Origin: a virus
Lineage: Duplodnaviria > Heunggongvirae > Uroviricota > Caudoviricetes
Virus record (IMG/VR): IMGVR_UViG_2917875804_000001
Direction: 5' to 3' (one strand)
DNA length: 40,512 nucleotides
Numbering within the stretch: position 1 is the first letter of the stretch; every line of letters begins with the position of its first letter. Below are positions 5,386 through 11,165 of this stretch, in pieces. The position numbers were made by a program, and so were the translations under genes. Below the pieces are notes generated by a model. The model saw only the letters and a program-made list of their open reading frames with translations. It did not search any database and had not been told where the DNA came from.

Positions 5386-5930
5386 GCCTCCATCGCTTTA
5401 TCAGGTTTGTCGGTGTTACTGCCCTGACCGTTCTCTCTGTGACGATGCCCGTTATAGGCAAGCCGCATCGCTGACATGGTGGTGCCGCCGGAGTCGCACA
5501 GGTCTTTCACCTGTCCGGTCACTTCAAGGTCCATTTCAAAACGTGCTTCAGGTGCATTGCGAAACGTGATCGTTTTACCTGCACCGTCCACCACGATCCC
5601 CTCCCGGGTCAGCGTCACGGACTGCCCCTGATCGTCATAGACAGCCACCTCACCCGTCTGCAGCCCTTTCAGGCGGTAGCGCCGGTCCGACACCGTAACA
5701 ACCACCGCATGAGAACGATCGCCATCCGGAAACAACACCACCGCTTCCGCACCGCTGTTTGCCCTTGCGGTAAAACCGTAGGGTTCAAGATGTTCAACCC
5801 CGGCTTTGGGTTCACCGGCAATCAGGGACACATCCACGGTCTGACATTTCGTGGCGGCACTGATGCTTTTCACCACGGCCCGCCCAATCAGGCTGAGGAG
5901 TTGTCGCTGCATGGCTTCAATCGTCCTCAT
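5382..5930 (-). CDS. Baseplate assembly/spike protein V (Mu gp45-like); start taken at the internal Met (MRTIEAMQ...)
   Basis: ORF-track piece 5382..6020; the N-terminal extension overlaps the upstream gene, so the internal start is more plausible. Confidence 0.6.
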   Translation of the reverse strand: MRTIEAMQRQLLSLIGRAVVKSISAATKCQTVDVSLIAGEPKAGVEHLEPYGFTARANSGAEAVVLFPDGDRSHAVVVTVSDRRYRLKGLQTGEVAVYDDQGQSVTLTREGIVVDGAGKTITFRNAPEARFEMDLEVTGQVKDLCDSGGTTMSAMRLAYNGHRHRENGQGSNTDKPDKAMEA

Positions 5931-7008
5931 CAGAACGGGTCCTCCTGTACTCTGGCTTTTTTCTTTTTCCGCGCGCGGGGGCTTCGGGTTCAGGCAGATA
6001 AGCATCAGGTGGGCCGACACGGATTTCCGTCAGGGTGCCGTTCTGGTCCTGAGTAAACGTGACTTCCGAGACAAGCAGTTCGGTATTGTCGAAACCACAG
6101 ACCGGATCGAAGACAATCACCCGCTGGTTGGGCTGCCACAGCGTACCGTTACCCTGTCGCCAGCCCTGCACCACATAGGTGGTTTCATCCGTCCGCGCCG
6201 CCCGTTGCCGGGCTTCAAAGTCCGCACGGGCAATACAGCCTGCCCCCGTAGCCTGCCCTGTCTGCCTGATATACATCGGACGGTAACGGGCAATAAATGC
6301 GTCTTCTGTGCGGGCCCGCAGCGCGGTGGTGGTGGCCTCACCGAAATCATCGTCATTTCCGGCACGCTGCCCCGCCACCTGGTAAACTGAAAACCGCTCC
6401 CGGATACTCTTCTCCGTATCACAGGAAAGGATGTTTTCCCCAAGTACCAGCGCGGTATGTGCCCGCGTTGAGCCAATACCGCCAATCACCAGCCTGCCGT
6501 GCGGGTCGTCGTAAGCCAGTGCCTGCTGCTGACCGAGTATTTTGTTGATCACCTCGATCACCGTTTCGCCGTGATCAGGCTGGACATCCGGAATAACACC
6601 CGACGGCGCACCGTTGTTCACCACCTCAATGCCGAAAGGCGCAGCAAGCGCCTGCGCAATCTGTACCAGCGATCGTCCGTTAAACTGTGTCGGTTCGGCT
6701 GCACAGTCAATCAGGTCAGCGGTCAGACTGCGTCCGGCAATACCGGTGCTGACCGAACGGGCATCGTAACGAACGGGCGTCGCCTCCACCCAGCCGGTGA
6801 TCACCAGCTCATCACCAATCAGAACTTCCACTTTTGAACCGTTTTTAATACGCGGCTGAAGCGTGGTGATACCCTCATCTCCCGGCCACTGGCGGGTGAT
6901 CTCCATACTGAAATCCCGTGCCAGCCGTTCAATACCGGCACCGATGCGCACCGATGTCCAGCCATTCCACTCCCGGCCATTTACCCGTAGCGTGACATTG
7001 TCGTTCAT
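5917..7008 (-). CDS. Tail protein / baseplate hub, Mu gpP (gp44)-like
   Basis: 363-aa ORF downstream of the DNA-circulation gene, conserved Mu-like order. Confidence 0.75.
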   Translation of the reverse strand: MNDNVTLRVNGREWNGWTSVRIGAGIERLARDFSMEITRQWPGDEGITTLQPRIKNGSKVEVLIGDELVITGWVEATPVRYDARSVSTGIAGRSLTADLIDCAAEPTQFNGRSLVQIAQALAAPFGIEVVNNGAPSGVIPDVQPDHGETVIEVINKILGQQQALAYDDPHGRLVIGGIGSTRAHTALVLGENILSCDTEKSIRERFSVYQVAGQRAGNDDDFGEATTTALRARTEDAFIARYRPMYIRQTGQATGAGCIARADFEARQRAARTDETTYVVQGWRQGNGTLWQPNQRVIVFDPVCGFDNTELLVSEVTFTQDQNGTLTEIRVGPPDAYLPEPEAPARGKRKKPEYRRTRSDEDD

Positions 7009-8381
7009 TGCACTGGCACCTTCAGAGGGATCACCGGCACAAAGCCGGGATGCGTAATAGCATTACGCCGGATAAGGTCCACGTCACGCGCCGCGTTATC
7101 AAACCAGGTCGCCGCCAGCACCAGCGCGGGTAAAACCTCATCCGGCGTGCGCTGAATGATCCGCGCAGACTGTTCAAGGCGCGTGTTGATATCCGCATTC
7201 AGATCTGCTTTCACCCGGCGCAGCGCCAGAAACAGCGCATCACTGGTTGTACGGGACAACTCCTTATCAATTGCCGTATTCAGTGTGTCGCGAATGTCGG
7301 TCAGTTCTTCCCACGTTGGCAGGTCAACCGTGTTTTTCACCGCAGGTGCATTGTTCAGTGCCGGATGCGTGACGGAAGGCCAGCCGGTGCTCTGCGCGGG
7401 TGTTGTTGACTGCCCCACTGCGGCATTCTGCATCACCGCGGGAGTTGTTGGCGCAGGCAATCGTGTGACGGCATACGCTGCTTCGCTGATTGCAGTCGTA
7501 CGAAGAGTGCTGGCAACCACGTTACGCTGCTGCGTCGCTGTGGCGGTGGTTTTACTGTCCGTTTTCCAGACGCCGCGCGGTTGCAAATCGCTGCCGAGGC
7601 TGACACCAGAAAGCATTTTGATCATGGTGACCAGGTCGCTGGCGTTACCATAAAGGCGTTTACCGGTACGCCACATTTTCTGCACCTGCTCAACGAAATT
7701 TTTTCCTGACGATGGCGGCGGCAGAAGTACCGAGATATCCCCCTGCAACAGCCTGGCGGCATCCGATACAGCAGAATCCACCACTTTCATCGCATCAGAA
7801 ACATACCCAAGCATTGTGCTGGCATTACCGATAACGTCGTTCTGCACAAAATCCGCCACGCCATCGATACTGAAACCGCTGAAGCTGTCACTGATGCAGT
7901 CATCCAGTGCAGAACAGGATGACATCAGCGTCTGCGCCGTCGCCACGCCTGATGTGGGGTAAGAGAGTTCTCCCGCTTCGACAAACTTCAGGTCAAAGCG
8001 GACAATACGCCCTTCACTCTTCGATGTGCTGACCCGGACTTCCCCGTCAACACAGACTTTCACCTCACCGTATGTCGGGTGGACAAGCGTGCCGGGACCT
8101 GGTTTATTCAGCGCTTCAATCAGGAGATCACGCTGGTCAAAGCAGTCATCTCCCACCACATAAGCCGTGATGGACGGGCGGAAAGTGATTTTCCCCAGGT
8201 CTTCGGTATAGGGTTTGTCGCGGTTCGGGTATTCATGTGTTTCCACACGACGACCGGTTCCCGCACTTTCTTCTTCAACCTTAAACGGCACGCCGCGAAA
8301 TGACGCATCCTGAAGTCTGTCTTTCCACGTCATATAAGTCCCATATTTATTATCAGTAGTAATATTTACTGGTAATGCCAT
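7005..8381 (-). CDS. Mu gpN-like DNA circulation protein
   Basis: 458-aa ORF with Mu N-like N-terminus (MALPVNITTDNKYGTYMTWKDRLQDASFRGVPFKVEEE) and position after the tape measure. Confidence 0.7.
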   Translation of the reverse strand: MALPVNITTDNKYGTYMTWKDRLQDASFRGVPFKVEEESAGTGRRVETHEYPNRDKPYTEDLGKITFRPSITAYVVGDDCFDQRDLLIEALNKPGPGTLVHPTYGEVKVCVDGEVRVSTSKSEGRIVRFDLKFVEAGELSYPTSGVATAQTLMSSCSALDDCISDSFSGFSIDGVADFVQNDVIGNASTMLGYVSDAMKVVDSAVSDAARLLQGDISVLLPPPSSGKNFVEQVQKMWRTGKRLYGNASDLVTMIKMLSGVSLGSDLQPRGVWKTDSKTTATATQQRNVVASTLRTTAISEAAYAVTRLPAPTTPAVMQNAAVGQSTTPAQSTGWPSVTHPALNNAPAVKNTVDLPTWEELTDIRDTLNTAIDKELSRTTSDALFLALRRVKADLNADINTRLEQSARIIQRTPDEVLPALVLAATWFDNAARDVDLIRRNAITHPGFVPVIPLKVPVQ

Positions 8382-8443
8382 AATTTGTAGTGGTAGCCAT
8401 TACCATTTGTAACTATATAAATTATTAGCATTAAGGTGATAAC

Positions 8444-8890
8444 ATGAAGAAATTATTAAAATGGATTTTATATATTTTCATCGGGTTGGTGATTATTGGA
8501 TATTTTGCAGGCAATAACGATAAAGGCTCTAATTCTTCATACTCATCCGATACGGAAGCTGCGGCACCGCAAAAAGAAATCTACAACACTACTGCTCGAC
8601 AGCTGTTTAAAGAGTATGAAGAAAATGAAGTCGCTACCGATGAACAGTTAAAAGGTAAATTAATCGCCGTTAGAGGTATCGTACAATCCATTGATAAGGA
8701 CTTTACTGACTCTATAATTATTAAATTCAGAACTGAAAATGAATTCATGCCAGCAAGAATGGAGATGCAAGACTCTGAAAAATCAACAGCTGCTGCTCTT
8801 AAAAAAGGAGAACAGGTAACTGTTATTTGCGAAAAAATGTCCAGAATTGTCGGCTCCCCATCAGGCCGAAATTGCGTGTTCGCACAGTAA
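8444..8890 (+). CDS. Membrane-anchored OB-fold (tRNA_anti-like) protein; opposite-strand moron inside the tail module
   Basis: AT-rich 148-aa ORF on the opposite strand to the flanking tail genes. It has an N-terminal transmembrane helix and a C-terminal KGK-LIAVRGIV...GEQVTVIC motif like tRNA_anti-like OB folds, and is followed by a hairpin terminator. Confidence 0.6.
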   Translation: MKKLLKWILYIFIGLVIIGYFAGNNDKGSNSSYSSDTEAAAPQKEIYNTTARQLFKEYEENEVATDEQLKGKLIAVRGIVQSIDKDFTDSIIIKFRTENEFMPARMEMQDSEKSTAAALKKGEQVTVICEKMSRIVGSPSGRNCVFAQ

Positions 8891-8893
8891 GTT

Positions 8894-8925
8894 CAGGGAG
8901 GGGCGGCCCTCCCTGTTCGTCTTTA
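8894..8925 (+). terminator. Rho-independent terminator-like hairpin (CAGGGAGGGG-cggc-CCCTCCCTG followed by a T-rich tail)
   Basis: Perfect 9-10 bp GC stem with 4-nt loop immediately after the stop at 8890. Confidence 0.5.
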
Positions 8926-10754
8926 CCTAAATCTGGTGTACCCAACATCGTGATTAATATCAATGTCACTAGAACGTGTTTCCATAACCCGCATACCCGG
9001 AGGCGAATTCACAAAAGAGACCTTGATCTCACCATCAACTTTTGGCGCAGAAGCTTTGTTAATCATGAAGGGATTCGGGGCTGTGGCATCGGAGGCGTTG
9101 TTTGACTGAGCCAGATCCACCGCCGGATAAGGTGTGTATCCCCGCGCCGGTATTCCCGTCCCATAAGCATCATAAGCACCCGCGCCCCACTGCGCAGAGT
9201 TAATGGCATCGACCGTGTCACCGGAACTGTCGGTAAACCACTCAATAATTGGCTTCAGCTTGTCCCACATATCCTGAAACCACTTAACAACCGGCCCCCA
9301 GTTATTGATCACCATCCCCAGCGGCGACCAGGCAAAAACTTTCTTAAGGAGTTCCCAGCCAGCCTCAAAATAAGGACCAATGGTTTCCCAGAGTTTCTTA
9401 AAATAAGGTCCGACAACATCCCAGTTAGTGATAATTAATCCCGCAGCCAGGCTATCGCCGTCGCAATCATGCCAATCGGCGTCATCGACATGATCCTGCT
9501 GACAATACTGATGGCACCGCCAACGCCCATCAATCCCAGTTTCAGAATCGCAAGACCGGCAGCAAGCCCGACGACGCCGCGAATAACCCGGGGATTTTCA
9601 TCCGCAAACTTCGTGAATTTCTCCCCCAACTCCCCCAGCCATTGCGTGATATTTTTAGCGTCACCAGAAAATGCACCGCCAATAGCCGCAAGGCCGTTAG
9701 TTGCGGTCCCTGTCATTGCCTCCCACAGGTTGGACAGCGTACCAAGCTGTGCCTGAACACGTTTATTCAGGCTGGCCTGTTTATTCATCTTCTGCTGGAT
9801 CTGATCGTAGCCATCCTTTCCTTTATCGATTAGCGCATTGACCACCTGAAGGGTTTCGGCATCATCACCAAATATTGCCTTAAGTACACCAGTTCGTTTA
9901 ACGTCGGTCAGTTGTCGCAGCTTTGCCAGTTGCCTGAACATGTTATCAAGACCGCCAAAACTCCCTTTGCCGTCAGTAAAATCGAGCTGTACCCCGAGTT
10001 TCTGGCGGGCCATGATTTTATTGACGTCCCTGATTTTCTTAACGCTTAATCCGGACTGGATAACTTTTCGCAGGGCGTTACCTGCCGACTCCCCGTTCAT
10101 CCCCATCTGATCCATCATGACGCTGATGGGGGCAAGGCTCTGTGCAGCCTGAAGACCGTCCTTGTTCACCATCTTCAGAACAGAGCTGGTTTTAGTGAAG
10201 AAGGACAACATGTTGGTATCGTCAACGCCCAGATAAAACGCCTTCTGGATAGTGTCGAACAGCCCCATCATGTCTTCTGACGCCGTTCCGGTAGCATCCT
10301 GCATCTTTGCGGCAAACTCGGCAGCCGCTTCCGGTGTTTTTTTCAGTTGTACCGCAAGATAAGCTGTCGCTTTACCCACACCGCCAAGAATGTTTTCTGC
10401 CGGGATCCCCTGACGCACCAGCATCTGCATCATGTTCTGGAAATCAGCCGTTGTACCGGGTAGCTGGTTACCCAGGCCAATAGCCAGTTTATTGATGTCC
10501 TGAAAGCGCTTTCCAACCTCGCCGTTCGCATCCATCATGGCGACTTTCAGCCCGGTGGCGGCGTTTTCCTGATCGGCATAAGATTTCAGGGAAAGCGTCA
10601 GACCCGCTGCCAGTCCGCCACCAAGCGCCAGCCCACCCTGTGACGCTTCTTCCGCCTGGCGTTTAAATCCCCGGATTTTCTTTTGCATTTTCGACAGCGC
10701 GGGAGAAAGCCTGTCGACACCGGTGATCAACGCCTTAAGCTCAAATTCAGCCAT
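8923..10754 (-). CDS. Tail tape measure protein, split by an apparent -1 frame change near 9435-9445
   Basis: ORF 9435..10754 (439 aa) continues in another frame through 8923 with W-rich repeats (NWDVVGPYFKKLWETIGPYFEAGWELLKK...). The frame downstream of the stop is open across the junction. Confidence 0.7.
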
Positions 10755-11165
10755 GTGTGCGTTTCTCCTGCTCTATCCTGTTTGCCTGACTGACCAGTAA
10801 GGGAATTTCACTGATCGGCATATTCAGCAATTCGAAAGGATTAATGCGCCAGTAGCTGGCGCAGTCAAAGAAGCGATCAGTGAGGTATTCAGCCGTCAGG
10901 CCTGGAGGAAAAAACCGGCCACAAGCCACGCCGCTGCATTCAGGTCTGCCGGAGACATCTGGTCGACAGAGCTTTGCGGCACTTTCGCCAGCCGCACAAT
11001 GTATTTCGACACCACATGCGCCAGAAGTCTGACGGACTCATCCTGATTCATCTGGTAGGGATACCCCAGCTCGCGGACATCCTTCCCGGTGGGCTCATCA
11101 AACTCCAGTACGGAGAGTGTCTCGCCATGAGCAGTAATCGGTTTCTTTAACTCAAGCTCTTTCAT
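10747..11165 (-). CDS. Tail assembly chaperone pair (89-aa ORF plus overlapping 60-aa ORF; possible programmed frameshift product)
   Basis: Two short overlapping ORFs between tail tube and tape measure, the canonical chaperone position. Confidence 0.5.

Follow-up and report, generated by a model that had tools for sequence, protein, structure and literature searches.

A Sie2009-family OB-fold membrane protein encoded by a moron in the tail module of an SfV/SfII-like prophage, a candidate exclusion protein

The DNA analyzed here (the window, a stretch of 40,512 nucleotides from a Caudoviricetes virus, IMG/VR record IMGVR_UViG_2917875804_000001) carries, between two genes of a contractile-tail module, an AT-rich cassette with a single gene on the opposite strand. 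Its product, of 148 amino acids, is almost certainly a PF12869 protein of the same family as Sie2009, the superinfection exclusion protein of the Lactococcus phage Tuc2009, with an N-terminal membrane anchor and a C-terminal oligonucleotide/oligosaccharide-binding (OB) fold. From this analysis it appears somewhat likely that the protein acts by blocking the injection of phage DNA, a function suggested by the distant homology to Sie2009 together with genomic context. The cassette itself is a moron, being a horizontally acquired and probably self-contained transcription unit in a polymorphic slot of an SfV/SfII-like prophage located at thrW/proA. The gene and the parts of its product are the following:

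8444-8890, plus strand: Sie2009-family/PF12869 membrane-anchored OB-fold protein, 148 amino acids (RefSeq WP_000734912.1, 'OB-fold protein').
8444-8512, plus strand: MKKLLK and hydrophobic helix, residues 1-23, a predicted signal-anchor with N-in orientation (AlphaFold2 helix 2-22).
8513-8578, plus strand: Ser/Asn-rich disordered linker, residues 24-45 (predicted local distance difference test, pLDDT, below 50 for residues 24-39).
8579-8887, plus strand: OB barrel with N-terminal helical cap, residues 46-148 (AlphaFold2 and homologue alignment).

The Pfam match to PF12869 (tRNA_anti-like) spans residues 2-130 and reaches 69.5 bits against a gathering threshold of 23.5 (E 2.9e-19), and the PHROG match is to phrog_8545, 'superinfection exclusion Sie-like' (E 1.5e-49). 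The AlphaFold2 model, obtained with 42 homologues (pLDDT 86.5), consists of a helix at residues 2-22, disorder at residues 24-39, and two short helices with a beta barrel at residues 46-146. The top PDB match of this predicted structure is 3F1Z, with which it shares the OB barrel capped by N-terminal helices; a sequence search of PDB chains returned chance matches only. 3F1Z is a Klebsiella pneumoniae 'putative nucleic acid-binding lipoprotein' from structural genomics and corresponds to the solved member of the family, differing from the window protein in its lipoprotein anchor and in an identity of 16-19%.

Across the 42 homologues, the invariant residues of the OB region are Y58, N61-E62-V63-A64, D66, G78, K85, C129, R134, and C144, and the linker differs in both length and sequence. 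Exactly two cysteines are present in the OB part of 41 of the 42 homologues, C129 and C144 being invariant. Moreover, when the three cassettes found in the tail slot are compared, the proportion of nonsynonymous differences (pN) is 0.09-0.16 and that of synonymous differences (pS) is 0.67-0.84; since synonymous sites are saturated at this low pN, purifying selection acts on the protein.

The link to exclusion comes from Sie2009. The label of phrog_8545 is also the RefSeq product name of Tuc2009 orf2, which lies between the genes for integrase and repressor, and orf2 is sie2009. Sie2009 matches phrog_8545 over its full length (E 1.7e-79) and PF12869 with 43.3 bits, above the cut-off of 23.5. 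When it is aligned with the profile of the window protein's family, hhalign gives a probability of 97.6% (E 3.3e-12) over 128 columns that include the anchor, the linker, and most of the OB domain, and pairwise BLASTP gives E 1e-6. Both proteins are thus prophage-borne members of PHROG 8545 and PF12869, and in both, a basic N terminus leads into a single hydrophobic helix, after which come a linker rich in Ser/Thr and an OB domain of about 100 residues, the motif Y..N..A.D..(Y/L)KGK...(V/F).G.V.S being aligned between them. Sie2009 gives protection from heterologous phages of lactococci and stops the injection of DNA, with transduction falling below the detection limit (PMC7693887, PMC11381338, PMC10883804), and its mechanism is still called unknown (PMC10883804). 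However, the two cases differ in several respects: the window protein belongs to a Gram-negative host, where the domain would sit in the periplasm; its family has an invariant Cys pair that is absent from Sie2009; and its gene is on the opposite strand of a tail module, whereas sie2009 lies between repressor and integrase. The bridge between the PF12869 OB fold and Sie2009 is made explicit here, and a PHROGs-based annotation would already label the gene 'Sie-like'. In the literature searches, no study of the PF12869/Sie-like OB family in Gram-negative hosts was found, and a 2024 review of superinfection exclusion names no such Gram-negative protein.

Regarding topology, the initial MKKLLK is followed by a hydrophobic stretch of 17 residues (maximum KD19 2.16), with three lysines ahead of the helix and an acidic linker behind it, that is, a positive-inside distribution of charge. 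This distribution, the invariant Cys pair, and two kinds of variants among the homologues fit an N-in/C-out protein with a periplasmic OB domain. In the first kind, the anchor is swapped for a lipobox (homologues P0064, P0067, and L073), and in the second, a cytoplasmic zinc ribbon is joined to a transmembrane helix (P0081, the Klebsiella phage protein of L006, and 10-11 of 60 long relatives). The additional domains of those 60 long relatives are for the most part zinc ribbons and GYF_2, and no fusion to an Ltp domain was seen. The isoelectric point of the OB domain ranges from 4.9 to 9.5 across homologues, its net charge is not conserved, and many invariant residues are acidic, so a nucleic-acid-binding surface is not suggested.

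The original prediction, made from the letters of the window, had proposed an N-terminal transmembrane anchor and a tRNA_anti-like OB fold; the first agrees with the AlphaFold2 helix and the hydrophobic stretch, and the second with the PF12869 match and the predicted barrel. Two families or signals that it had raised were not recovered. A lipoprotein identity was rejected, the window protein having no lipobox and its first cysteine being residue 129 (the signal-peptidase -3/-1 site, read from the sequence as the lipobox was, is also poor), and for this reason the name 'OB-fold putative lipoprotein' that RefSeq gives to some copies does not fit it. Also, membership in the BOF/YgiW family was rejected, as a Pfam scan at E up to 1 gave PF12869 and a sub-threshold KOW match only. 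NCBIfam returned nothing useful.

The prophage occupies the window from about 2 kb to 40 kb and combines Mu-like contractile-tail genes, HK97-type head genes, and a lambdoid early region, its end being formed by an integrase adjoining tRNA-Thr/proA. Over its tail segment, it shares 93-97% identity with parts of SfI, SfII, and SfV, which are serotype-converting phages of Shigella, and with many Escherichia coli prophages. The cassette and its two flanks are placed as follows:

8334-8922, no strand: inserted cassette (moron), 589 bp, G+C (GC) fraction 0.37, missing from SfII (alignment) as well as from SfV and SfI (span of the match).
7005-8333, minus strand: flanking DNA-circulation (Mu gp43-like) gene, from the RefSeq annotation of an identical segment.
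8923-10755, minus strand: flanking tail tape-measure gene, with its stop at 8923, split in the window by a 1-bp deletion near 9450.

The DNA-circulation gene starts at 8333 according to RefSeq, and not at 8381 as in the list of open reading frames (ORFs; 7005-8381). The alignment with relatives breaks off just past the CATATAA at this start, and divergence begins at the extreme ends of the flanking genes, the last tape-measure codons included. Between the two minus-strand genes, the ORF at 8444-8890 is the sole long one on the plus strand. The cassette has a GC fraction of 0.372 (8334-8922), compared with 0.556 for the DNA-circulation gene and 0.517 for the tape-measure gene, and in the 110 nucleotides upstream of the ORF the value is 0.273, a distinct base composition.

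The slot is polymorphic among relatives. In SfII, the alignment shows the tape-measure stop and the DNA-circulation start parted by a short hairpin alone, annotated as a rho-independent terminator, and in SfV and SfI the match across the junction spans 975 bp versus 1501 bp, so that the cassette is missing by span. The flanks were found in 1,093 of 5,426 complete E. coli genomes and the cassette in 79, of which 74 carry it at ≥99% identity. Other cargo fills the same slot of other E. coli prophages, namely, a 225-residue lipoprotein (lipobox LLGGC, phrog_1353, without a Pfam match) in 55 genomes and a 125-residue bPH_1 (PF08000) protein in 28, which therefore supports a moron in a polymorphic slot. 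Diverged cassettes, likewise opposite in orientation, fill this slot in E. coli I3 (74% identical) and in Buttiauxella (encoding a 73%-identical protein). Insertion polymorphism at the slot and the contrast of GC fraction with the flanks thus place the cassette among morons, both by insertion and by composition. A search for plasmid copies of the cassette found none.

A deletion allele of 143 bp is present in about 20 or more E. coli genomes (for example, E. coli 042, NC_017626.1, locus L009, 1487-1960, corresponding to about 8373-8515 of the window), and about 20 of the 74 genomes with a cassette at ≥99% identity have it. The deletion takes out the candidate promoter, the ATG, and the membrane anchor, and RefSeq still names the remnant 'OB-fold protein'. 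It is a natural null allele, useful for comparison.

Four elements that could make the cassette a transcription unit of its own were located:

8370-8405, strand not assigned: inverted repeat TGGTAATG (8370-8377) / CATTACCA (8398-8405), perfect 8-nucleotide arms 20 nucleotides apart, overlapping the candidate -10.
8376-8384, plus strand: candidate extended -10 promoter element TGCCATAAT, the main block being kept in three diverged leaders.
8431-8439, plus strand: Shine-Dalgarno sequence TTAAGGTGA, about 5 nucleotides ahead of the ATG, as read from the sequence.
8894-8915, plus strand: terminator-like hairpin CAGGGAGGG-GCGG-CCCTCCCTG, then TTCGTCTTTA, with a 9-bp stem of which 7 pairs are GC and a GCGG loop.

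At the 3' end, the hairpin has a folding energy of -20.4 kcal/mol (z = -2.8), its GGGAGGG/CCCTCCC stem recurs in both diverged cassettes (I3 and Buttiauxella), and no T-run follows it on the minus strand. At the 5' end, the main conserved island of the three otherwise diverged leaders is TGC-N-ATAA(A/T)TT (8376-8386 in the window). The counterparts of the candidate -10 are TGCTATAAA in E. coli I3 and TGCGATAAA in Buttiauxella, the extended -10-like forms of the three cassettes being TGnCATAAT, TGnTATAAA, and TGnGATAAA. A strong Shine-Dalgarno sequence, TAAGGTGA, precedes the ATG, and AGGTGATAACATG is kept in the I3 cassette. In the 110-nucleotide leader, 8 near-inverted repeats are observed against a mean of 1.17 in mononucleotide shuffles (14 of 2000 shuffles reach 8), a count inflated by overlapping registers. 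The repeat TGGTAATG/CATTACCA is not kept in the I3 or Buttiauxella cassettes, the two diverged copies compared, and a role for this palindrome as a conserved operator was rejected on that ground. The TGnNATAAW block, similar to an extended -10, would be a better regulatory candidate than the palindrome. Rfam gave no match in the cassette.

Concerning the cassette as a whole, the original prediction of an AT-rich opposite-strand gene between the DNA-circulation and tape-measure genes describes well the single plus-strand ORF found there, and the perfect GC hairpin that it had placed downstream is the 9-bp stem at 8894-8915. The near-palindrome that it had noted upstream exists, its position having been given about 10 nucleotides off, with the true site further left. 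Moreover, the proposal that such a self-contained unit would be typical of lysogenic-conversion or exclusion genes seems likely to be right for this cassette, as judged from the PHROG and Pfam families that its product shares with Sie2009.

The genomic context of the homologues ties the family to phage immunity operons. The family is large, with 7,777 representatives of 50%-identity clusters at E ≤1e-3. Of 51 dereplicated IMG/VR loci, 27 have a repressor-type gene (186-type CI, helix-turn-helix (HTH), or HTH with S24) in the same orientation as the homologue and no more than two genes upstream of it, and in 15 of these 27 it is the immediate neighbor, often with a gap of 13-27 nucleotides. The label 'HTH repressor' of the largest neighbor cluster rests on HTH domains and BLAST clustering, and the matching gene in Burkholderia phage Carl1 is annotated as immunity repressor. 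In Carl1, the order is repressor, membrane protein, OB gene, and terminator, and a lambdoid contig has an S24 repressor followed by the OB gene. A position behind the repressor is the classical place of exclusion genes expressed in the lysogen. Opposite-strand copies are also found in unrelated tail modules, for example, at the gpU|gpD junction of a P2-like phage and in the baseplate region of a Klebsiella phage.

In the proposed mechanism, the cassette gene would be transcribed in the lysogen from its own weak promoter of the extended -10 type while the late operon is silent, and transcription would end at the 3' hairpin. The protein would insert N-in into the inner membrane, leaving the OB domain in the periplasm on a flexible linker of about 22 residues and probably stabilized by a C129-C144 disulfide. 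As with Sie2009, rival phages would adsorb, but the transfer of their DNA across the inner membrane would be blocked. The target is a matter of speculation; by analogy with Ltp and HK97 gp15, treated below, it could be incoming tape-measure or tail-tip proteins, or a membrane or peptidoglycan site used by the injection apparatus.

Blocking the injection of phage DNA ranks among the anti-phage functions that are least understood. The E. coli/Shigella homologue is encoded by one gene of 148 codons, has a confident predicted structure, and comes with natural null alleles, so its mechanism would be testable by coliphage genetics. Also, about 1.5% of complete E. coli genomes carry the cassette, which is relevant for phage therapy and host-range prediction, and, through the connection of PF12869 with Sie2009, thousands of proteins annotated as 'OB-fold protein' would acquire a hypothesis of function.

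Several observations weigh against an exclusion function. The homology to Sie2009 is distant, with about 30% identity to the profile, no Cys pair, and the C-terminal strands unaligned. The window copy is located in the tail module and not in a lysogeny module beside the repressor, and a few homologues of Pantoea and Pectobacterium lie in chromosomal loci without obvious phage genes. PADLOC gave 0 matches for the window protein, and the papers found that mention tRNA_anti-like do so without any tie to exclusion. A scan for consensus sigma-70 promoters, in which a -35 match was required, found no site upstream of the ORF, the sole strong match being inside it. Finally, because about 20 E. coli genomes carry the allele deleted for promoter and anchor, the gene is dispensable.

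Among the other explanations, a lysogenic-conversion factor acting on the host envelope deserves the most attention, even if we regard it as unlikely. In this case, the ligand of a periplasmic OB protein would be peptidoglycan, an oligosaccharide, or a membrane protein of the host, and the protein would alter tolerance to stress, serum, or antimicrobials, as Bor/Iss or YgiW/BOF do. Oligosaccharides, like nucleic acids, are ligands of OB folds, a periplasmic location is predicted for the domain, and the chromosomal homologues of Pantoea and Pectobacterium would fit such a role, as would the presence of iss as another moron in a related prophage and a Serratia homologue at a prophage end, near an O-antigen-type acyltransferase gene. 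Nonetheless, the window protein has no Pfam match to BOF, the family is strongly tied to phage immunity operons, and the sole experimentally characterized relative, Sie2009, is anti-phage. That same relative acts at injection and not at a later step, which speaks against abortive infection of the AbiP/PdpSau type, where a cytoplasmic OB domain would bind phage DNA or RNA after entry. AbiP and PdpSau do combine an N-terminal transmembrane anchor with an OB-like domain and anti-phage activity (PMC10127798), PF12869 is nominally a nucleic-acid-binding OB family, and the PF12869-related TcdC binds G-quadruplex DNA in vitro (PMC3575817). However, the topology indicators (positive-inside charge, Cys pair, lipoprotein and zinc-ribbon variants) point outward, the wide range of isoelectric points and the mostly acidic conserved residues fit poorly with nucleic acid, and PADLOC is silent, so abortive infection is judged improbable.

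A role in the phage's own cycle seems about equally improbable. The protein would guard infected or lysing cells from re-adsorption of progeny and wasteful injection, or would modulate the phage's own tail or tape-measure protein, and the position beside the tape-measure gene would then be functional. Independent insertions adjoining tape-measure, gpU, or gpD genes in unrelated tail modules (SfV-like, P2-like L018, L068, and the Klebsiella phage) could be read in this way, and with T4 Imm and Sp there are already examples of exclusion genes that are expressed in lytic growth. Nevertheless, transcripts of a gene that runs against the late operon would be antisense to the late ones, the fully functional phages SfV, SfI, and SfII lack the cassette, and roughly half of the homologues are found in immunity operons instead. 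A decaying passenger without current function is very improbable. Deletion and IS1-truncated alleles do exist and the tape-measure gene of the window prophage is frameshifted; against this stand the strong purifying selection between cassettes, the residues invariant across 42 homologues, the size of the family, and the 148-residue ORF on cassettes at ≥99% identity in 74 E. coli genomes, about 20 of these being the deletion allele.

An injection-blocking exclusion protein in such a location would have parallels in other temperate phages. HK97 gp15, a short membrane protein, lacks an OB domain, and no relationship of sequence or fold to the window protein is expected. According to work of Cumby et al. 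from 2012, its moron reportedly lies inside the tail-gene cluster. Like the window protein, gp15 is a small inner-membrane protein encoded in a moron of a temperate coliphage, and it blocks DNA entry (PMC10883804). The Ltp protein of the Streptococcus thermophilus phage TP-J34 is, in a similar manner, a prophage protein held at the surface, outside the cytoplasm, and it blocks DNA injection, but it has a lipid anchor. The fold of Ltp is made of helical repeats and differs from OB. The tape-measure protein is given as the Ltp target in a reference cited in PMC10883804. One BFVD entry that structurally matches the model of the window protein is named 'Host cell surface-exposed lipoprotein'.

Glo of Vibrio phage K139 is a periplasmic exclusion protein whose gene follows cI and a BRCT-domain gene in the lysogenic operon, a place equivalent to that of the OB gene in locus L101 (repressor, WYL/BRCT gene, OB gene). 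As read from its translation, Glo bears a signal peptide that looks cleavable and lacks an OB signature, unlike the window protein, and homology suggested by the same operon position was rejected (hhalign 0.3%). The order HTH repressor, WYL/BRCT protein, and OB gene is found in both L101 and L087, parallel to cI, the BRCT-domain orf2, and glo of K139 (L106, 744-3772); such a BRCT/WYL partner may be a recurring regulator of these exclusion genes. In addition, four IMG/VR loci (L082, L085, L087, and L091) have, just downstream of the OB homologue, either an AAA_15/AAA_21 ATPase of 504-507 residues or a UvrD-type helicase of 574 residues and then a protein of 625 residues. These neighbors resemble Gabija-type defence genes and may mark an accessory 'defence corner' of those phages.

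An anchored OB architecture is also described for other proteins. AbiP of Lactococcus and PdpSau of a Staphylococcus aureus prophage share with the window protein the N-terminal membrane anchor, the OB-like domain, and, in their case, a known anti-phage activity (PMC10127798). They are set apart by their descriptions, being reported as abortive infection proteins with a cytoplasmic nucleic-acid-binding domain, whereas the domain of the window protein is predicted to be periplasmic. TcdC of Clostridioides difficile likewise has a membrane anchor and a C-terminal OB domain, which HHpred connects with PF12869, and in Lactobacillus and Leuconostoc phages, TcdC-like genes are found between cI and int (PMC3575817), which is the position of Sie2009 and of many homologues of the window protein. 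However, TcdC has a dimerization coiled coil and an assigned role in toxin regulation, and the TcdC-like ORF22 of Lactobacillus phage A2 (L109, 5044-5721) matches the window family weakly (35 columns, 78% probability). A phage exclusion protein might be the ancestor of TcdC, a link that is offered as a lead.

A broader and decidedly tentative proposal is that the membrane-anchored PF12869 OB proteins constitute one ancient, cross-phylum family of DNA-entry blockers, with Sie2009 in Firmicutes, thousands of members in Proteobacteria, and possibly TcdC. The helical-cap motif Y..NE.A.D...KGK would then recognize a common delivery feature of tailed phages, such as the tape-measure/ejection conduit at the cytoplasmic membrane, and the tape-measure/DNA-circulation junction of SfV-like prophages would be a small hotspot for envelope-acting anti-phage cargo.

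Some further observations concern the slot. The alternative cargo (bPH_1 at L003, 1498-1875; the lipoprotein at L004, 1488-2165) is on the same strand as the tail genes. In E. coli EJN001 (L010, 3111-4174), the 3' end of the OB gene is cut off by IS1A, and chromosomal genes (a lacI-family regulator and maltoporin) replace the tape-measure side of the prophage. Finally, a hairpin with flanking A and T runs lies in the late operon, between the tape-measure and DNA-circulation genes, in SfII (L002, 1944-1982) and in Buttiauxella (L017, about 5885-5910), and its appearance is that of a bidirectional terminator. In the window, the cassette stands in place of this late-operon hairpin, whereas the Buttiauxella cassette retains it beside the OB gene.

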